35,776 nucleotides of DNA from a virus, in the IMG/VR virus record IMGVR_UViG_3300045988_122132. The stretch is one strand, 5' to 3'. Shown in pieces: positions 3,848-29,856 of the stretch (position 1 is the stretch's first letter; each line of letters begins with the position of its first letter). The notes under the pieces are model-generated. The model did not search any database and was not told where the DNA came from. It saw only the letters and a program-made list of their open reading frames with translations. The translations under genes and the position numbers were made by a program.

Positions 3848-3954
3848 AAAATCCGTGCAGATTGCCGCTGCACGGTACAAAGGAAAGGGAGCGAGATATA
3901 GCCGAACTACGCTCGCCCCTATTATATCATAAAATCACAAAGGGGGCAATGAAA

Positions 3955-5097
3955 ATGGCAAAGCAAAAAGACGGAAGATACCGTGCAAAAATAACCGTAG
4001 GCACGGACGCGAACGGCAAAAGCATAGTCAAGTATGTATCAGGGCGGACGAAAAAGGAGCTTGAAGCGGCTAAGGCGGCGGCGCGTGAAAAGTACATCAC
4101 GGGGGCAAACGCCGTGCCGGAGGGGATACTTTTTGACCGATACGCGCTAAGCTGGTATGAGGTGTATAAGCAGCCGCATATAGGCGTGTCCGCGCAAATG
4201 TCATACCGCACGGCACTATATAAGCATATCTTCCCCGCGTTGGCGGGGCGAAGGCTGACGGCAATCACCACGGAGGACTTGCAGCGGCTGCTGAACACCA
4301 AGGCCGACACGTGCGCCGCCATAATAGGCAACATATCTACAATCCTGCGCGGGGTATTTCAGCGGGCGTATAGTCAGGGGCTTATCCCGCGTGACATCAC
4401 GGTCGGGCTTACAATCCCGTCCAAGCCCAAGGAGACGCGCAGGGCATTAACGGACGCGGAGACGGATGCGGTTCTGCGCCTGATGGATGAGGACGGCACG
4501 CTAATGCTTGCCCTGCTGTACTACACGGGTATGCGCTACGGCGAGGCTTGCGGCCTGCAATGGCGGCACGTTGACTTCAAAGCGGGGACAATCCGCATAG
4601 AGCAGCAGGCGGCGGGCAAGACGGGGGAGATAGATGCACCCAAAACGGATAAGTCCGTGCGGACGATACCCATGCCGCGCGAACTGGCGGACAAGCTGCG
4701 CCCCGTGCGCGGGCTGCCGCAGTCGTATGTAGTGCCGTCGTCCACAGGGTCATATCACCGCAATGCGACGCGATACCGCCTATGGGACGACTTAATGGCG
4801 CGGCTGTACGATATCGCGCCGGAGATTGACGCGATTGAAAAGGGCGGGCGGATGATATCGGTCATAACCCCGCATTACCTTCGGCATAATTATGCCAGCG
4901 TGCTGTATAACGCGGGCGTGGACGTGCTTTCCGCCCAAAGATATTTAGGCCACGCTAACGCAAAAATCACCCTCGAAATTTATTCACACCTTTCGGCACA
5001 GAAGGAAAAATACAGTGCAGAGCAGTTACAGGGCGCGTTTGAGAAAAGTTGCCGTAAAGTTGCCAGTCCCAAAGCGCACGGCAACGGCGGCAATTAA
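3955..5097 (+). CDS. int: Tyrosine recombinase (phage integrase) with N-terminal arm-binding domain
   Basis: The catalytic pattern is present: TGMRYGEACGLQW (R), HYLRHNYAS (HxxR) and LGHANAKITLEIYSH (H...Y). N-terminus DGRYRAKITVGTDANGKSIVKYVSGRTKKELE. The ATG at 3955 has better spacing from GGGGG than the ATG at 3949. Confidence 0.9.
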   Translation: MAKQKDGRYRAKITVGTDANGKSIVKYVSGRTKKELEAAKAAAREKYITGANAVPEGILFDRYALSWYEVYKQPHIGVSAQMSYRTALYKHIFPALAGRRLTAITTEDLQRLLNTKADTCAAIIGNISTILRGVFQRAYSQGLIPRDITVGLTIPSKPKETRRALTDAETDAVLRLMDEDGTLMLALLYYTGMRYGEACGLQWRHVDFKAGTIRIEQQAAGKTGEIDAPKTDKSVRTIPMPRELADKLRPVRGLPQSYVVPSSTGSYHRNATRYRLWDDLMARLYDIAPEIDAIEKGGRMISVITPHYLRHNYASVLYNAGVDVLSAQRYLGHANAKITLEIYSHLSAQKEKYSAEQLQGAFEKSCRKVASPKAHGNGGN

Positions 5098-5283
5098 AAA
5101 ATGCCTAATTTACTAAGAAAAAGCACCCATTTTTATGAGTGCTTTTCTTCTTTGGTATCCGGCAGCTACTTGGATTTTTTGCCCACCAAAGTACGCCATT
5201 GCGCCGAAAAACATAGATATTTAGGCATTTTCACAAACAGCCGTTAGCGCGAGCGCGCAATAAAAAGTTGCCGCAAAGTTGCC
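5044..5283. other. Candidate attP region (arm-type repeats flanking a core)
   Basis: A 21-nt direct repeat AAAAGTTGCCG(T/C)AAAGTTGCC occurs at 5044..5064 (inside the int 3' end) and at 5263..5283. Each copy is a tandem AAAGTTGCC dimer. An inverted repeat AAAATGCCTAA occurs at about 5099..5109 and 5219..5229. Confidence 0.45.
5118..5150 (+). terminator. Rho-independent terminator after int
   Basis: GCACCCAT-TTTT-ATGAGTGC is an 8-bp stem with one mismatch (5123..5142). It is followed by TTTTCTTCTTT and preceded by an A-run. Confidence 0.7.
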
Positions 5284-5302
5284 GGGGGTTGGTGTAAATA
5301 GG

Positions 5303-5611
5303 TTACGCCTTATACATCTCCTGATACCTTTTTACACGTTCCGTCTTGTCTATCTGCTTGCCGTGTAAATAGTTATACAGCGTCAGCATATCGGCGGGCG
5401 GGTCGCCATGCTTGGCCTTGTAGTCCGATATGGCGCGGACTACAAGGTCGTGCAGCATGGATGCGTGGGTCAGCTCCTGCCCCGATATGGTGTACAGGGT
5501 CTGCGCTACGGTCGGCATATCGTCCTTGACCGCAAGCGCCCACTTAGCATACTTTTCAGCGTCCGCGACTTCTTCACAAATCTGGTCGGACAAATCGTTA
5601 ATCAGTTTCAT
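5303..5611 (-). CDS. Cargo protein E: small all-helical protein, possibly ferritin-like (hypothetical)
   Basis: 102 aa containing EEVADAEKY and GQELTHASMLH, an E...ExxH-like pattern. Its start overlaps the upstream stop as ATGA. Confidence 0.6.
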   Translation of the reverse strand: MKLINDLSDQICEEVADAEKYAKWALAVKDDMPTVAQTLYTISGQELTHASMLHDLVVRAISDYKAKHGDPPADMLTLYNYLHGKQIDKTERVKRYQEMYKA

Positions 5612-6018
5612 TTCTTTGCTGCCTCCGCCACGGTGGCGACGGCTCCGCCAGTCAGACCCGTCAAGTCGTTATTCGGCGCACAAGGCGGGTTGCCGAACAG
5701 CTTAAAAGTCCCGCCCGTGGGGGTGGTGGATACCACGGTGCTGTATTTGGTGCGCTTGCGCATGCTGCACGCGGTGACTTGTGCGCAGCAACGGTTTATC
5801 AGGGGATACTGCGCCGTGCCTGTACCGATGGTGATATATACGGGCGCGGATATGGTGGTGGTATCGGGTATGCTCTGCGCCACGACGATGCAATACTTCC
5901 CACCGTTGGCGTACACGCCTGCGGGCAGATTGATAATAAGCCCAGTACCCGCCACAAATGTCACGGACTGGGATATAATCAGGTGGGGGCAAAGCTGGCA
6001 TATATTCTTACAAGCCAT
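5608..6018 (-). CDS. Cargo protein D: Cys-rich, probably beta-rich small protein (hypothetical)
   Basis: 136 aa with 8 Cys, including MACKNICQLCP and NRCCAQVTAC. The sequence is rich in T, V, I and G. RBS GAAAGGAGAAAATTATG. Confidence 0.6.
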   Translation of the reverse strand: MACKNICQLCPHLIISQSVTFVAGTGLIINLPAGVYANGGKYCIVVAQSIPDTTTISAPVYITIGTGTAQYPLINRCCAQVTACSMRKRTKYSTVVSTTPTGGTFKLFGNPPCAPNNDLTGLTGGAVATVAEAAKK

Positions 6019-6040
6019 AATTTTCTCCTTTCATAATTAA

Positions 6041-6060
6041 GGGGCGGTCTAAGCCGCCCC
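6041..6060 (-). terminator. GC hairpin between cargo genes C and D (possible attenuator)
   Basis: GGGGCGG-N6-CCGCCCC. On the minus strand it is followed by TTAATTAT and then the RBS of gene D. Confidence 0.35.
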
Positions 6061-6095
6061 GATAGTCACGGCAATGCCGGATAGTGTGTCATGTC

Positions 6096-6722
6096 TTAGC
6101 AGCAGCTATTGCCGCAGCCGCAGCCGGAGCCGCAAAACGGGCTATTCCCGGCGTTGTAAGTGTAGCCGTTGGGGTAGCGTACCACGCCCGTCAGCTGCTC
6201 GCGCACAAACAGCTGGTTATTAGCCTGCTCAAGCTGGGCTATGCGCTGCTCAAGCTGCGCCTTTTCGAGCGCCGCGAATTTTGCGTCGATGTTGGCGTTG
6301 ATGGCATCCATGCCACGCTGTACGGCGCAGCAGCACTCCGCCATCTGGGACTGTATGCCGTTCGCGGACTGCATCACGGTCATATTCGTGCCGTTCTGCG
6401 CGAGGGCCATTTCCTTCCCAAGCTGGCCGATATTGCCCTGCATATCGTAGCCAAGGCTGCATATGCCGTTGCCAATGTTGGTCAAGCGGTCATTAAGCTG
6501 GCCAAAATGCTGGCCGAAAAGGATTTCCTGCTGCGTCGCTGCGGTCGCGTACTGGCCGTAGTCACCGTTGCCACGGTTGCCCCAGCCGCCAAAGCCTCCG
6601 CCCATCATAGCCAAAAGCACGATAAGAGCGAATATCCAAAAACCTCCGCCCATGCTGCCGCCAAGGCCGTCGTTTTTGTCCGTTACGGCGGCGATATCCG
6701 CCAAAGAGGGTACATTATCCAT
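6096..6722 (-). CDS. Cargo protein C: membrane-anchored Q/N-rich protein with C-terminal Cys cluster (hypothetical)
   Basis: 208 aa. A Gly-flanked TM helix GGGFWIFALIVLLAMMGGGFGGWG is followed by AECCCAVQ and a heptad-like segment LEKAQLEQRIAQLEQANNQL. The C-terminus is FCGSGCGCGNSCC. RBS GAAGGAGAAAGACAATG. Confidence 0.65.
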   Translation of the reverse strand: MDNVPSLADIAAVTDKNDGLGGSMGGGFWIFALIVLLAMMGGGFGGWGNRGNGDYGQYATAATQQEILFGQHFGQLNDRLTNIGNGICSLGYDMQGNIGQLGKEMALAQNGTNMTVMQSANGIQSQMAECCCAVQRGMDAINANIDAKFAALEKAQLEQRIAQLEQANNQLFVREQLTGVVRYPNGYTYNAGNSPFCGSGCGCGNSCC

Positions 6723-6774
6723 TGTCTTTCTCCTTCATAATTTTATTTTTTTTGGTATATAAATCGCGCGTGAT

Positions 6775-6990
6775 TTATCGTATCTGGGACAAGATGCTTT
6801 CTGGGTCTATACCTTTTTGCTGGCACAGGCTGTAAAACATCTGCTGGGGGTCACGCCCGCCGAGCATCCGCATTACCTGCTGCATTTGCGCGGGCATCCC
6901 CATCATGCTTTTGGCCTGGGCGATTAGCTGCGGAGATATTTGCGGGGTCTGCTGGCTTCCAGCTTTCATTGCTTGCAATATGGGATTCAT
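6775..6990 (-). CDS. Cargo protein B: small Q/M-rich protein (hypothetical)
   Basis: 71 aa. RBS GGAGGA lies 8 nt before the ATG, and a TAA sits immediately upstream in the same frame. Confidence 0.55.
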   Translation of the reverse strand: MNPILQAMKAGSQQTPQISPQLIAQAKSMMGMPAQMQQVMRMLGGRDPQQMFYSLCQQKGIDPESILSQIR

Positions 6991-7285
6991 TTAATTTATC
7001 CTCCAATTTTGATATTCGTGCCGCGAGGTCGTTAATGTCCACAGGCGGCGCCGGCTGATACGGCGTGATGGTGTACGGGGTTAGTGTAGGATACCCCGCG
7101 CTGTCGGTACACTTGTGCCAGACTATGGGCGCGGTGGTGTCCAGCAGCAGGATGCTGCTATTGGGCGCAAGGCTGTACGCCTTCGCCCCGCCCTCGCCAT
7201 TGACTTGGGGGACTTGGGCGCGCACGGGCTGCTGATACTGTTGGGGCTGCTGATAGCCGCCAAAAAAGGGATTGGGATTCCACAC
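6851..7285 (-). CDS. Cargo protein A: protein with Q/P/Y-rich N-terminus (hypothetical)
   Basis: GTG start with RBS ATAAGGAGGCGATAAAAGTG. The N-terminus is MWNPNPFFGGYQQPQQYQQP, and a heptad-like INDLAARISKLEDKLN follows. The last 140 nt overlap gene B in another frame. Confidence 0.55.
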   Translation of the reverse strand: MWNPNPFFGGYQQPQQYQQPVRAQVPQVNGEGGAKAYSLAPNSSILLLDTTAPIVWHKCTDSAGYPTLTPYTITPYQPAPPVDINDLAARISKLEDKLNESHIASNESWKPADPANISAANRPGQKHDGDARANAAGNADARRA

Positions 7286-7326
7286 TTTTATCGCCTCCTT
7301 ATGGCCTTATTTTCTCAAAAAATTAG

Positions 7327-7347
7327 CCCCGCGCCCTGTGCGCGGGG
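7327..7347 (-). terminator. Intrinsic-terminator-like hairpin in the leader of the cargo operon
   Basis: CCCCGCGC-cctgt-GCGCGGGG is an 8-bp stem. On the minus strand it is followed by CTAATTTTTTGAG, only about 40 nt before the gene A start. Confidence 0.5.
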
Positions 7348-7409
7348 AGGGAATTTACCGGGCATTTAATGAGCAAAAATATTTTTTCAAAAAAAGTATG
7401 CAAAACCCC

Positions 7410-7438
7410 TTGACGTAGGTATATACCTATGGTATAAT
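7410..7438 (+). promoter_or_regulatory. Accessory promoter P1 with palindromic operator in the spacer
   Basis: TTGACG (7410..7415), 17-nt spacer, TATAAT (7433..7438). The spacer contains the perfect palindrome TAGGTATATACCTA (7416..7429). Confidence 0.7.
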
Positions 7439-7489
7439 AAGGCCATAAGATAAAGCAAGGGGCCAAAGCCCCAGAGGGAGTTAAAAATC

Positions 7490-7909
7490 ATGAAGTACGA
7501 TGTAACATTTTCCTGCGGACACACTGCAACGATAGAGCTGTTTGGCCCCGGCAAAGAGCGCGAGCGCAAAATCAGCTGGTATGAGACGCACGGCGAATGC
7601 CCCGAATGCTACAAGGCTCGCAAGCAGGCAGAGCGCGAGGCGATTGACGCACAGGCGGCGCAGGAAAGCAAGGAAAAACAGTGGCCCGAACTGAGCGGAA
7701 CCCCGAAGCAGGTCGCATGGGCAAACGCAATCCGCAAGGAAAAGATAGATGAAATAATGGCCGTTGGCGCCAACGAAAACGGAATGCGCTGCATCGCATG
7801 GATTATACAGACCTATACCACGGCAAAATTTTGGATAGATAATCGTGACAGGTCATTGCGCGGCGAGTGGGGCCGCGAGGTAATCAACACTTATAATGCA
7901 ACAAAATAA
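7490..7909 (+). CDS. Zn-ribbon protein, paralog 1 (hypothetical)
   Basis: 139 aa starting MKYDVTFSCGHTATIELFG...GECPECYK. The N-terminal motif is shared with the next gene. RBS GGGAG. Confidence 0.65.
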   Translation: MKYDVTFSCGHTATIELFGPGKERERKISWYETHGECPECYKARKQAEREAIDAQAAQESKEKQWPELSGTPKQVAWANAIRKEKIDEIMAVGANENGMRCIAWIIQTYTTAKFWIDNRDRSLRGEWGREVINTYNATK

Positions 7910-7928
7910 AAAAGAAAAGGAGAACGCC

Positions 7929-8585
7929 ATGAAATACGAAATGGAATATGCCTGTGGGCATACCACTACGGTGGATTGCACGATGGACGACCGCGACCAC
8001 ATGCGCGACTTGATAGGCCGCACATTCTGCCCCGATTGCTGGGGTAGGATGTGCGCAAGCGGAGATTTTGTACCGATGCGCATGAGTTGCGCAGAGCGCG
8101 ACGCTGATTACTGGTCATGCAGAGCCAAGCCCGATAGCTATGACAGCAAGACCGATACCATAGTAATCAATGTGCATAAGGACTTGCTGCGAGAAAAGGC
8201 CGAGATCGCCGCGTTAAAGGTATCAAGCGCGGCCATAGAGGGCATGAGCGAGGTGCGTGCGGCAAAAAACGCATGGGACGACTATAAGGCCGCAATCAGG
8301 CATTGGCAATTTATAGACCATTGTGGATGTGAAAAACCGGAAGAGCCCGCCGTGAAAATGGCAGAGATAGAATCTAAATATCCCCGGGCAGCTGCATTTT
8401 TTACTGCGGAAGAATTTACGCGGGGTGTCGATATAGATAAATGCGTCGCAGGGCGCAGGGCGATGGAAAAGATTTTGCGCAGCGAGGACTATGCCGAGGC
8501 TATCAGGGGCATGGAAGCAGAGTGGGAGCCCTGGCCATCGTACAGCAAGCTTGTGGAGTGGATGAAAAATGAAAAAAGAGTTTGA
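7929..8585 (+). CDS. Zn-ribbon protein, paralog 2 (hypothetical)
   Basis: 218 aa starting MKYEMEYACGHTTTVDCT...FCPDCWG. RBS AAAAGGAGAACGCCATG. The track ORF start at 7896 lies inside the previous gene. Confidence 0.65.
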   Translation: MKYEMEYACGHTTTVDCTMDDRDHMRDLIGRTFCPDCWGRMCASGDFVPMRMSCAERDADYWSCRAKPDSYDSKTDTIVINVHKDLLREKAEIAALKVSSAAIEGMSEVRAAKNAWDDYKAAIRHWQFIDHCGCEKPEEPAVKMAEIESKYPRAAAFFTAEEFTRGVDIDKCVAGRRAMEKILRSEDYAEAIRGMEAEWEPWPSYSKLVEWMKNEKRV

Positions 8586-8763
8586 GCGGCAAGCCCGCTA
8601 CGACAAAAAAAGCACCAAGGGCATATACCTTAAGCTTAACATCGGCACAGATGGCGACATCCTCGCCCGTCTTGCCGATGTGCCCAGCACGCAAGGATAT
8701 ATCAAGGGCCTGATACGCGCCGACATAAAAAATCAAAAAATCAGCAAAAACCCCTTGACGTAG
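8569..8763 (+). CDS. Small ribbon-helix-helix-like (Arc/CopG-type) protein
   Basis: 64 aa. KGIYLKLNIGTDGDILARLADVPSTQGYIKGLIRADI fits a strand-helix-helix pattern. Its stop codon TAG lies within TTGACGTAG of promoter P2. Confidence 0.5.
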   Translation: MKKEFERQARYDKKSTKGIYLKLNIGTDGDILARLADVPSTQGYIKGLIRADIKNQKISKNPLT

Positions 8764-8783
8764 GTATATACCTATGGTATAAT
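8755..8783 (+). promoter_or_regulatory. Accessory promoter P2, a duplicate of P1
   Basis: TTGACG (8755..8760), 17-nt spacer, TATAAT (8778..8783), with the same palindrome at 8761..8774. The 38-nt core 8747..8784 is identical to 7402..7439. Confidence 0.7.
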
Positions 8784-8829
8784 AGGTCATACGATAAAGC
8801 AAGGGCGGCAAGCCCGAAGGGAGTTAAAA

Positions 8830-9114
8830 ATGAAGGTTTACAAAGCGATTGAAGGCACTGAGACTTATGAGCAGTACGGCGAAGATTTTATCTCCATGTG
8901 GCGGGTGGCAGAAAAAGGGTTCCCCTGCAGCGAAGTCCGCGCGGCTACGGCAGATGAGCTTATAGCGGCTATAGACGACGATGCCGAATGGGAGCCGAAC
9001 CTCGTCGAGGCTCTGTGCTACGACCTGGGCATAGACTTTGACAGCTACGAGGATTGCGAATCCGCCTATGACGCGGCAGTAGCCAAGCACGCCGCCGAGA
9101 CGCTGAGCCGCTAA
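8830..9114 (+). CDS. Small strongly acidic protein (hypothetical; DNA-mimic or anti-defence candidate)
   Basis: 94 aa with 23 D/E against 7 K/R by hand count. It is the first gene after P2. Confidence 0.65.
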   Translation: MKVYKAIEGTETYEQYGEDFISMWRVAEKGFPCSEVRAATADELIAAIDDDAEWEPNLVEALCYDLGIDFDSYEDCESAYDAAVAKHAAETLSR

Positions 9115-9159
9115 GACGCAGAGGACAAGGGGCGGCGTTGCCGCCCTAAAGGAGAAAAA

Positions 9160-9522
9160 ATGGGAAGCACAACGCAAAAACCGGATATACCGCCAGTAGA
9201 TAGTACGGTAGCGGCTGTAGTGGATATGTGGGCGAGTGGGAGCAGCATGAAGGGAATTGTGCGCCAGCTCGGCTTAAGCTTGTCTAAAGTCCGGCGTATA
9301 CTGGTAGATAATGGCTTGGTGGACACAGATGAATCTTTGCTGTACGCAGACGGATACACACCTGCCGAGATTGCCCAGATGATGGGCAAGACGAAAAATG
9401 CAGTACAAGGCCGAATCCCATACGAAAAGGGCATGTATAACAGGGATAGCCCCACAACAAACGCCATGCGCATAAGGGCATGCAGGGTTCGCGCGGCTAA
9501 AAATACCGCCCCCCAAAAATAA
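9160..9522 (+). CDS. HTH DNA-binding protein (two HTH-like segments)
   Basis: The two segments are MKGIVRQLGLSLSKVRRILVDNGL and GYTPAEIAQMMGKTKNAVQGRI. It is the last gene of the P2 unit. RBS AAAGGAGAAAAAATG. Confidence 0.65.
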   Translation: MGSTTQKPDIPPVDSTVAAVVDMWASGSSMKGIVRQLGLSLSKVRRILVDNGLVDTDESLLYADGYTPAEIAQMMGKTKNAVQGRIPYEKGMYNRDSPTTNAMRIRACRVRAAKNTAPQK

Positions 9523-9526
9523 AAAA

Positions 9527-9542
9527 GCCCCCGTCAGGGGGC
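9527..9542. terminator. Bidirectional terminator where the accessory cluster and late operon converge
   Basis: GCCCCC-GTCA-GGGGGC, flanked by an A-run upstream and AT/T-rich sequence downstream. Confidence 0.65.
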
Positions 9543-9773
9543 ATATTTTATTATGGTTCTTTCCGCTGCCTTGTATCGGCGGCGAATTTGGTCATACTCT
9601 AACGGCGCATCGGTGTACCGCGCCTGATACTCCGCTGTCAAACGGTCATACGGCACGCCGTCAAGCAAATGCCGCGCCACAAGCCAGCGGTCGCGCTCAC
9701 AGAAAATCCGCTGATAGATTATCCCTTCCCACTCCGCGCGGGATAGGGTCTGCAAAATATTTTTGTCCACCAC
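9534..9773 (-). CDS. Small HTH-like protein (hypothetical), last gene of the late strand
   Basis: 79 aa. The track start is a GTG with no RBS. An ATG at 9790 with GGAGGTG 8 nt upstream is in another frame and stops after 23 codons (9719..9790). The true start is therefore ambiguous: either a leader peptide exists or there is a 1-nt indel. Confidence 0.45.
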   Translation of the reverse strand: MVDKNILQTLSRAEWEGIIYQRIFCERDRWLVARHLLDGVPYDRLTAEYQARYTDAPLEYDQIRRRYKAAERTIIKYAP

Positions 9774-28903: not shown

Positions 28904-29017
28904 TTATCGCCGCCCCCTCCTTGCCGGATACGGGCACTCCTTCACCCCGCACCGCCTTTTACCCTTGTCATAGTGCTTGCACTCTTTACAGGTGGCGGGT
29001 GTGTGTATCCACGTCAC
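28904..29017 (-). CDS. Tiny Cys-rich zinc-ribbon protein (37 aa, hypothetical)
   Basis: The GTG start overlaps the methylase stop (GGGTGACG). It encodes VTWIHTPATCKECKHYDKGKRRCGVKECPYPARRGRR and fills an otherwise non-coding gap. Confidence 0.3.
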   Translation of the reverse strand: MTWIHTPATCKECKHYDKGKRRCGVKECPYPARRGRR

Positions 29018-29856
29018 CCAAGCCGCCTTATTATTTCCTTTTCCCTCTCCGATAGCTCCCATATTTTTGCCCCTGCTTTCTCTGCTGCTGCTTTCTCTGC
29101 TGCTTTCTCTGCTGCTGCTTTCTCTGCTGCTGCTTTCTCTGCTGCTGCTTTCTCTGACAAGAGGAAGCCGCCGCCGAAAACCTTCTTTCCTGCGTCCCTT
29201 TGACTATCCAACGTGCTGATAAAGGCGCAATCCTCGGCGCGTATCCTTAACGACTGCCCGTATTTTGCAATGCGCTGTATTCTCGCCGCCGTCAGAACAT
29301 GGTCGTGGTACTCGTATTTCGGCAGCGACTTTGTAACCTTCTCGCGGTTTTCATCATCGGCCGCTTTTATTGCTTCATATAAGTCGGGCGCAACCATGAT
29401 TTTGTATTGCCCCATGTTTGTGGCAAAGCTCGTGTCTACGCTCGCGCCGTTATCGTACATTATCGATAGCCCGCATATGACATAATTTATACCGTCCAAG
29501 CCGCTGCCTGAAAAAATCGTTTTGGCGGGCCCGAAAAGAAAAAAGCGTATGCCGCGTTGATTGTACCAACGGCAGATCTCGGCAAAGATCGAAAAAGGCG
29601 GGTTGTCTATCACCGCACAATTCCCGCTGTAATCCTCTTTCTTGTAATCCCCGCCGGGGTAAAACGGGCGTATAATCCGCGCTCCCTCCAAGCCGTATTC
29701 CTTAACCGCCCAATCAAGAACGGCGGCATATACGTTATCGGGCGTGTAGCAATCATCCGTTGTTTTCTTCGGCTTGAATTTTTCAACGAATGCGGCATAT
29801 TCGCCCGTCATTTCCATCTGGTCGCCAAGCGCCATTTTCTCTTTGAAGCTGTCCAT
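29014..29856 (-). CDS. N6-adenine DNA methyltransferase (DNPPF motif) with C-terminal EKAAA repeat
   Basis: Catalytic motif IV VIDNPPFS, plus the TTDDCYTP region. The C-terminal low-complexity repeat is EKAAAEKAAAEKAAAEKAAEKAAAEKA. Confidence 0.75.
   Translation of the reverse strand: MDSFKEKMALGDQMEMTGEYAAFVEKFKPKKTTDDCYTPDNVYAAVLDWAVKEYGLEGARIIRPFYPGGDYKKEDYSGNCAVIDNPPFSIFAEICRWYNQRGIRFFLFGPAKTIFSGSGLDGINYVICGLSIMYDNGASVDTSFATNMGQYKIMVAPDLYEAIKAADDENREKVTKSLPKYEYHDHVLTAARIQRIAKYGQSLRIRAEDCAFISTLDSQRDAGKKVFGGGFLLSEKAAAEKAAAEKAAAEKAAEKAAAEKAGAKIWELSEREKEIIRRLG
29074..29156. repeat. Coding tandem repeat, 15-nt unit (one 12-nt unit)
   Basis: tgctgctttctctgc is iterated about 5.5 times and encodes (EKAAA)n on the minus strand. 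Confidence 0.85.

Follow-up and report, generated by a model that had tools for sequence, protein, structure and literature searches.

A candidate acr-aca-type anti-defence locus with a predicted palindrome-binding regulator in a temperate gut phage

Introduction

The operons in which phages of Pseudomonas and Pectobacterium combine anti-CRISPR (acr) genes with an anti-CRISPR-associated (aca) regulator gene of the Aca1 or Aca2 type share a recognisable layout: a strong promoter with an overlapping inverted-repeat operator, small, fast-evolving and often acidic cargo proteins that are shuffled among related elements, and a small autorepressor encoded at the end of the operon. Here we describe a locus with a comparable layout at positions 7327-9542 of the IMG/VR virus record IMGVR_UViG_3300045988_122132, the whole of which (35,776 nucleotides) is referred to below as the window. 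The locus has two promoters, P1 and P2, and encodes five proteins named by their length in residues, p139, p218, p64, p94 and p120, of which p64 is the predicted DNA-binding autorepressor. It differs from the acr-aca operons in that p64 matches no helix-turn-helix (HTH) Aca family known to Pfam or NCBIfam, the operator fills the spacer between the -35 and -10 elements, the host appears to be a gut Firmicute of the Oscillospirales type, and the promoter-leader unit is repeated two to three times per locus on an invariant chassis.

A regulator of similar size has been described in Pasteurella multocida: Aca14, a ribbon-helix-helix (RHH)-type Aca of ~65-66 amino acids, represses its own and an adjacent anti-defence operon via inverted repeats and is often found near AcrIF23 (Feussner et al., NAR 2026, PMC13551039). 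The predicted regulator p64 is likewise a non-HTH protein of ~65 residues associated with AcrIF23-like genes, and its own operon and the adjacent one have the same palindromic site, P1 and P2 being identical. The likeness concerns protein size, site arrangement and gene association. The Aca14 repeat overlaps the -10 element, whereas 3 nt separate the palindrome at 7416-7429 from the -10 element of P1 (7433-7438); the two systems also belong to different phyla, and in the present one the chassis is repeated within each locus and regulator/operator pairs appear to be exchanged on it.

Three Acr families bear on the cargo. AcrIC5 (PF22147; PDB code 7YHR) has known orthologues among both Firmicutes and Actinobacteria, and the type I-C system of Eggerthella lenta is susceptible to the Pseudomonas protein as an inhibitor (PMC7913775). 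AcrIF23 (7FIA) blocks cleavage by Cas2/3 (PMC9270243), and AcrIE7 (9L2Q/9N3X) binds the single-stranded DNA of the R-loop (PMC12002350). The window encodes no AcrIC5 homologue, but p94 is, like AcrIC5, small and very acidic, and sibling phages carry an AcrIC5 homologue both at the allelic position and fused to p94. The protein p139 shares the helical domain of AcrIF23 and AcrIE7 within residues ~55-125, and differs from them in the addition of an N-terminal zinc-ribbon-like module.

To our knowledge, few anti-CRISPR or other anti-defence proteins, and no Aca-type regulators, have been characterised from the uncultured Clostridia (Oscillospirales) that are abundant in the human gut. The locus extends the known systems, both the acr-aca operons and the control of two operons by Aca14, and does not overturn them. 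What it adds is a probable new small repressor family with a nearly invariant operator, which could be searched for as a pair to find anti-defence operons by association, and a set of new candidate anti-defence proteins: p94, p218, p120 and the zinc-ribbon-AcrIF23-like p139 of the window, and p243, p89, p61 and p73 of its siblings.

Two promoters with identical operators

The five open reading frames (ORFs; 139, 218, 64, 94 and 120 codons) are those given in a preliminary description of this DNA, and all lie on the plus strand. The same description had reported a repeated promoter core, and the details hold: there are exactly two copies of the 38-nt sequence AAAACCCCTTGACGTAGGTATATACCTATGGTATAATA, one at 7402-7439 and one at 8747-8784, each on the plus strand, with no match in 100 shuffled sequences. 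Each copy contains a near-consensus promoter, TTGACG and TATAAT separated by 17 nt, which agrees with the consensus at 11 of 12 positions and also carries a TGn extended -10 motif. P1 spans 7410-7438 (-35 at 7410-7415, -10 at 7433-7438) and P2, identical to it, spans 8755-8783 (-35 at 8755-8760, -10 at 8778-8783). Most of the spacer is filled by the palindrome TAGGTATATACCTA, perfect over 14 bp, so that an inverted repeat overlaps both promoters; its only perfect copies in the window are these two putative operators, at 7416-7429 and 8761-8774.

The p139 (7490-7909), p218 (7929-8585) and p64 (8569-8763) genes follow P1, and those of p94 (8830-9114) and p120 (9160-9522) follow P2. For p218, an upstream ATG at 7896 is likewise open. 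The 3' end of the p64 gene is interwoven with P2 in a way that differs slightly from the preliminary description, which placed the stop codon inside the -35 element: the -35 element consists of the last two sense codons (TTG ACG), and the stop codon TAG forms the first three bases of the second operator copy.

Operator classes and their regulators

The loci compared here (given L numbers) were collected by a leader search of IMG/VR, which contributed 28 stretches, and by protein look-ups, which contributed many ENA and Logan contigs. The repeated unit comprises an A/T-rich upstream region, the -35 element, the 17-nt spacer, the -10 element and the leader. It is present in the same slot, between the same flanking genes, in ~40 sibling gut phages, with two to three copies in each; L017, L039 and L040 have three promoter copies with identical operators. 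An unrelated prophage, one that has a P22-type portal, likewise carries the module at its end.

The operators fall into four classes, each with its own regulator. Class A, to which the window belongs, has TAGGTATATACCTA in the spacer and co-occurs with a gene of the p64 family in 37 loci. Class E (11 loci) has CTATwCCGGwATAG in the spacer, a perfect palindrome in L152, and a regulator of 61 or 63 residues. Class F (5 loci) has CATACTG-N2-4-CAGTATG in the spacer and a 59-residue regulator. Class X (15 loci) has TTTGTCAAGy-N3-5-rCTTGACAAA overlapping the -35 element, with variable, non-palindromic spacers, and a 159-residue regulator with a C-terminal XRE HTH. The regulators of classes E and F have sub-threshold Pfam matches to families of the RHH clan (RHH_1, ParG, RepB-RCR_reg, RHH_5 and TacA1).

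Across ~70 loci, each has a single operator class at all of its promoters together with the gene of the matching regulator. No mismatched pair was found among the classed loci, the remaining loci being fragments cut near the promoter. The cargo proteins p139, p94 and p243 each occur behind different operator classes, which argues that the operator follows the regulator and not the downstream gene; p94, the most widely shared cargo, is found behind all classes but F. Variation within the classes also preserves symmetry: in class X, L007 has TCTGTCAAGCG-AAA-CGCTTGACAGA in place of TTTGTCAAGT-AAAC-ACTTGACAAA, and comparable changes distinguish L152 from L024 and L026 in class E and the variants of class F from one another. 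Such changes support the idea that these palindromes are bound by proteins.

The p64 family is large (867 clusters at 50% identity; a PHROG family of unknown function) and has the consensus RYDKxNT....LKLN..TDADIL..L..V.NKQGYIK.LIR.DI. Homologues only ~50-63% identical occur in unrelated phages that differ in lysis genes, leaders and cargo, and the operator is retained in their own promoters, which read TTGAC(A/G)-TAGGTATA(T/C)ACCTA-TG(G/A)-TAnnnT (L170/171, L172, L173-175, L192, L195, L197 and L201). Depending on the phage, the gene of the p64 homologue ends, begins or lies within an operon of small genes, and its neighbours vary: p218 or proteins of 48, 67, 91 or 53 residues; one homologue has an additional C-terminal domain fused to it. 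The comparison strongly supports recognition of the palindrome TAGGTATATACCTA by the p64 family, and autoregulation through it, and points to p64, not p120, as the cognate regulator of the locus. We regard p64, a small basic protein (pI 9.9), as a probable member of a new family of Aca-like regulators.

The preliminary description had called p64 RHH-like. Its strand-helix-helix pattern agrees with that, as does its position, which is also that of the RHH proteins in classes E and F; no significant RHH match was found. Pfam returned no match for p64 and one weak RHH_7 match among 55 family members, and hhalign of p64 against Arc, p59 and p61 was not significant. An RHH fold may thus be proposed from pattern and position, the sole grounds for it.

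Anti-CRISPR links of the cargo proteins

The association of the locus with anti-CRISPR genes is most direct in its siblings. Class-E siblings on the same phage backbone have the order class-E promoter, AcrIC5 homologue, G/C hairpin with ribosome-binding site (RBS), 61-residue RHH protein, second class-E promoter and p94, with or without p89. The AcrIC5 homologue and the RHH gene thus take the place of p139, p218 and p64, and the p94 operon that follows is the same. The 60-residue sibling protein is a full-length AcrIC5 homologue by its matches to PF22147 (E = 3e-23, 82 bits, cut-off 27) and to PDB entry 7YHR (E = 6e-10); among the five proteins of the window there was no match to PF22147, which was detected in sibling loci only. 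A natural p94::AcrIC5 fusion (P0033) also lies behind a class-E promoter, with the RHH gene next. The sequence common to p94 and AcrIC5 is limited to an 11-residue motif, YGEDFI. In a rearranged remnant, L034 1902-2557, a class-E promoter cuts the integrase ORF down to 39 residues and drives the p94::AcrIC5 fusion gene.

Within the window itself, the link to a validated Acr is made, at a distance, by the C-terminal domain of p139. Searched against the PDB, the p139 family profile matched AcrIF23 (7FIA, E = 1.1e-6) and AcrIE7 (E = 6e-4). The AlphaFold2 model of p139 (predicted local distance difference test score, pLDDT, 88) shows an N-terminal β-hairpin bearing C9, H11, C37 and C40, followed by a helical domain. 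In a Foldseek search with this model, AcrIE7 ranked first and AcrIF23 third, and the shared domain had a probability of 0.99 over 53 columns. All three proteins have the motif (S/T)G(S/T)xKQ.xWA..IR ... AKFWI.NR(D/N). The correspondence covers only residues ~55-125 of p139, to which the zinc-ribbon-like N-terminus is extra. Since AcrIF23 and AcrIE7 act differently, the target of p139 cannot be inferred from them. The preliminary description recognised none of the five proteins, which for p139 no longer holds.

As had been noted, p139 and p218 are paralogous in their N-terminus (MKY..(F/Y).CGHT.T plus CP(E/D)C), which is zinc-ribbon-like. The C-terminal domain of p218 is uncharacterised, and neither Pfam nor the PDB, profile search included, returned a match for p218; its own family is tiny, and its C-terminal domain is found in a 187-residue cargo protein of L013. 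We consider p218 a candidate anti-defence cargo protein. The acidity of p94 is as stated previously (23 D/E against 7 K/R, pI 4.05); it has no sequence match in the PDB, is co-regulated with the AcrIC5 homologue in class-E siblings, and is a candidate Acr. The remaining protein, p120, has two HTH motifs (Pfam HTH_23 and Sigma70_r4_2), has no PDB match and is optional cargo. PADLOC and NCBIfam assigned no defence system and no named family to the window proteins, apart from weak HTH matches of p120.

The sibling loci add to this repertoire. In place of p139 they may encode a 202-residue protein with the same zinc-ribbon N-terminus and another C-terminus, and in place of p218 the 187-residue protein, which shares the C-terminal domain only; further cargo includes p94 or a ~55%-identical variant, a 227/243-residue protein, 61- and 89-residue proteins and other small proteins. 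Cargo domains are often fused, as in p139::p224 of L165 (10514-11626; 370 residues). Domains resembling p94 are found in proteins of 210, 266 and 292 residues (P0219/P0223; L152 1495-2295): the 292-residue fusion joins p94 to the 210-residue protein, which itself ends in a second p94-like domain, and in the 266-residue fusion a Cys-rich middle part connects a p94-like N-terminus to a C-terminus resembling p73.

Interpretation and alternatives

We consider it fairly probable that 7327-9542 is an anti-defence accessory locus of the acr-aca type in which p64 is a palindrome-binding repressor of both operons. The preliminary description had put forward an acr-aca-like locus, and it gains support from the allelic AcrIC5-RHH loci, the AcrIF23/AcrIE7-like domain of p139 and the co-variation of operator and regulator; like the anatomy of the locus, these homologies, the allelism and the co-variation were computed directly.

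Several results weigh against this reading. None of the five window proteins directly matches a curated Acr family, and in the loci examined the AcrIC5 homologue occurs in class E only, never alongside p64. The match of p139 to AcrIF23 and AcrIE7 is distant, at ~30% identity over a partial domain. Distant AcrIF23 homologues have been reported beside helicases and nucleases (PMC13551039), so an AcrIF23-like domain need not always act as an Acr. A DNA-mimic surface had been suggested as something to look for on p94, and the search gave no such indication: Foldseek returned nothing at E<1 for the AlphaFold2 model (pLDDT 76), so no known Acr or DNA-mimic fold was recovered. The cargo behind p64-type operators in other phages matched no Pfam family and no other known family. 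As to p64 itself, which is basic and co-varies with the operator, searches for a DNA-binding fold with Pfam, the PDB and hhalign were negative, and an RHH fold finds no support from Pfam, PDB profiles or profile-profile comparison. Finally, L184 has an operator-like TTGACA-TAGGTATATACCTA at 1750-1778 with no p64 homologue within 2.6 kb; it is the sole such exception, has a poor -10 element (TAACTT) and lies upstream of a RelB/YoeB-like pair.

The locus might instead be a repressor-controlled accessory locus, of moron or early type, whose cargo serves another end: an antirepressor as in the immI region of phage P22 (Arc/Mnt-ant), superinfection exclusion or host takeover. In P22 immI (Arc/Mnt/Pant), a small repressor acting on a symmetric operator between the -35 and -10 elements ends a burst of expression. 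This layout is classical, and the present locus resembles it in its proposed small repressor and in the symmetric operator in the spacer of a strong promoter; P22, however, has a single operon with antirepressor cargo, and p64 showed no sequence similarity to Arc. Morons in general typically lie past the lysis genes and close to att, as this locus does, and a non-defence role would also fit the absence of a direct curated Acr match from the cargo behind this operator, in the window and in other phages. Against it stand the AcrIC5 homologue and RHH gene in the allelic slot of same-backbone siblings, the fusion of p94 to AcrIC5 and the Acr-like domain of p139, and we regard cargo unrelated to defence as unlikely.

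A second alternative concerns the identity of the repressor. With two clear HTH motifs and a place as the final gene of the P2 operon, p120 could be a terminal autorepressor of the second operon that binds the palindrome and cross-regulates the first. Yet p120 or a relative is present in just 5 of the 37 loci that combine a class-A operator with a p64-family gene, and the operator still accompanies p64 homologues where the phage has no p120 at all; this assignment is very improbable. The terminal DNA-binding autorepressor of the preliminary description would be p64, which ends the P1 operon and co-varies with the operator, and not p120.

RHH antitoxins typically autoregulate by way of a palindrome, and p64 is small, basic and encoded by a gene that overlaps that of p218. 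One could accordingly picture p218-p64, or p64 with another neighbour, as a toxin-antitoxin (addiction) module in which p64 is an autoregulating RHH antitoxin. No toxin family was matched, however, and the operator controls a second operon as well. The partner gene of the p64 homologue differs in every phage background, and because it is not conserved we reject the toxin-antitoxin reading as highly improbable. It is scarcely credible that a strong promoter was merely duplicated, or converted, in recent times to give the twin cores, their palindrome having no regulatory role: the 100% identity over 38 nt is what recent conversion would give, but the palindrome persists in unrelated phages whose leaders differ, changed there at one central position at most, is nearly always accompanied by a p64 homologue, and has counterparts in the other regulator classes, whose own symmetric sites show compensatory changes.

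Under the acr-aca-type interpretation, the model that we infer for the course of events is as follows. P1 would drive p139-p218-p64 and P2 p94-p120, and both operons would fire at full strength after DNA entry. As p64, translated last from the first operon, accumulates, its dimer would bind the palindrome between the -35 and -10 elements and occlude RNA polymerase at both promoters, repressing its own operon and the neighbouring one. The cargo would act on host defence, with p139 and p94 as candidates and p218 and p120 as further ones. Type I CRISPR-Cas would be the most likely target, because of the links to AcrIC5 and to AcrIF23 and AcrIE7.

At least four apparently orthogonal operator/repressor pairs were found; three of them share a phage backbone, and the fourth belongs to an unrelated one. 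More tentatively, the unit might be a mobile expression platform on which operator/repressor pairs are exchanged like immunity types, with p64 representing a new and widespread Aca family of gut-Firmicute phages and its operator a beacon. If this is so, an incoming phage could fire its anti-defence burst despite the Aca-type repressor of a sibling prophage, a heteroimmunity of anti-defence control, and the near-fixed operator TAGGTATAyACCTA could be used as a genomic beacon for anti-defence genes. Four operator/repressor pairs on one chassis would be of interest for the avoidance of cross-repression among phages and might be used as orthogonal regulatory parts.

The promoter-leader unit and the G/C junction hairpins may be the recombination joints at which cargo and operator/repressor pairs are exchanged. 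A precedent is reportedly provided by the PeSL cassettes of T4-type phages, which Arbiol, Comeau and Krisch are said to have described in 2010: in these mobile regulatory cassettes, variable small ORFs lie between repeated units of promoter and stem-loop, which seem to be recombination joints for modular shuffling. The present loci differ in belonging to temperate Firmicute phages and in that the unit includes a 5' leader, an RBS and a swappable operator; the only sign of recombination here is mosaicism. Integron-like (attC) cassettes were considered and rejected, as no integron integrase is present and each junction hairpin consists of a short G/C stem with perfect pairing.

Leaders, hairpins and boundaries of the locus

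Upstream of P1 lies an A/T-rich region (7374-7409, plus strand), kept upstream of class-A promoters in siblings, which may act like an UP element. Downstream of both promoters the similarity runs on past the core into the leader reported previously: GATAAAGCAAGGG, then a G/C hairpin of 4-5 bp, then GGGAGTTAAAAAT and the ATG. Leader 1 (7439-7489, plus strand) comprises GATAAAGCAA, a hairpin at 7459-7472 and the Shine-Dalgarno sequence GAGGGAG, and is kept across all regulator classes; leader 2 (8784-8829, plus strand) has its hairpin at 8803-8815, followed by a Shine-Dalgarno sequence. A third G/C hairpin and RBS, missing from the preliminary description, span 9129-9159 ahead of the p120 gene. 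This inter-cassette junction has an 8-bp stem (9129-9147, plus strand; -16.3 kcal/mol, z = -2.4), and similar junction hairpins are present in L001, L024, L032 and L206.

The leader hairpins fold only modestly better than expected (z = -1.4 to -1.7). Among the loci their loops vary and the stem never does, so leader covariation is uninformative. Rfam covariance models run over 7200-9700 (E<=10) gave nothing relevant and no CRISPR-repeat-like (Racr) signal for the hairpins. As the leader is invariant whatever the regulator class, it is not the RNA site of the regulator. It may standardise translation or mRNA stability, form a recombination joint, or act as a weak terminator of antisense transcription from the minus strand. 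Read on the minus strand, each leader hairpin (7459-7472, 8803-8815) with GATAAAGCAA gives a hairpin followed by TTGCTTTATC, a weak site resembling an intrinsic terminator.

In L027 (~535), L035 and L015 (~1615, reverse-strand coordinates), a second promoter is found upstream of the HTH_31-exonuclease-integrase genes. Its transcript likewise begins with GATAAAGCAA, and it has its own upstream inverted repeat, GTTCC..N..GGAAC. A leader start of this type was not found in the window phage itself.

The left boundary of the locus is a terminator-like G/C hairpin with a T-run at 7327-7347 (minus strand), found by a terminator scan, and its counterpart closes the module in the unrelated prophage L032. 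On the right, a bidirectional intrinsic terminator at 9527-9542 separates the cassette from the convergent late/lysis operon. Downstream of the hairpin at 7347-7327, after only ~40 nt, a minus-strand gene for a 144-residue protein starts (7285), and there is no obvious promoter between the two.

Genomic setting and additional observations

The window phage is a temperate siphophage of the gut. Its five cassette proteins are the database entries DAM16684-DAM16688, deposited as "MAG TPA: Caudoviricetes sp." and annotated as hypothetical in all cases but p120 (DUF1670 or CsgD-family). The integrase gene (3862-5097) is preceded by an exonuclease gene, and four to five minus-strand genes (5303-7285) lie between the integrase gene and the cassette. 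Beyond the plus-strand cassette comes the minus-strand late operon, which ends in a gene for a 79-residue protein, holin-like genes and an NlpC/P60 endolysin gene. This gene order agrees with the earlier placement of the cassette between the lysis genes and the attP-adjacent block, antisense to the late operon. Integrated copies in bacterial contigs end just past the gene of a 102-residue protein, which places the att site at ~5100-5300; the cassette would then be ~2 kb from one prophage end.

The flanking host gene in these contigs encodes a CitMHS protein, 70-80% identical to genes of metagenome-assembled genomes of Acutalibacteraceae and Oscillospiraceae. Judged by this one gene, and thus approximately, the host would be a gut Firmicute of the Oscillospirales type. 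The leader pattern had no match in 185,579 species-representative genomes. In some host contigs, defence genes directly adjoin the integrated prophage copy: McrBC, or a ResIII helicase with a restriction-endonuclease domain (L031 13302-15670; L205 1-1506; L207 1-1002).

On the att side, a three-gene block (p208, p136 and p102) lies beside the cassette in two unrelated phage backbones and in either relative orientation (window 5303-6722, minus strand; L032 11594-12691; L172 5208-6433). The p208 protein (PHROG 16490) is a membrane protein whose sequence includes a Gly-rich region and a tail rich in Cys, and p102 has a weak rubrerythrin-like match. In L172, the p208-like gene comes after the operon of the p64 homologue.

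Another near-consensus promoter (TTGACA/TATAAT) of the window, at 1676-1719 on the minus strand, has the inverted repeat TTGACAC-ATATA-GTGTCAA in its spacer. It sits in the presumed lysogeny-switch region, between a minus-strand gene for a 127-residue protein and plus-strand genes, and the repeat is probably the immunity operator of the phage itself. Finally, a tandem repeat, (GCAGCAGCAGAGAAA)n, at ~29083-29157 inside the minus-strand ORF 29014-29856 codes for a low-complexity stretch of the (EKAAA)n type; it was noticed as the context of a chance pattern match.

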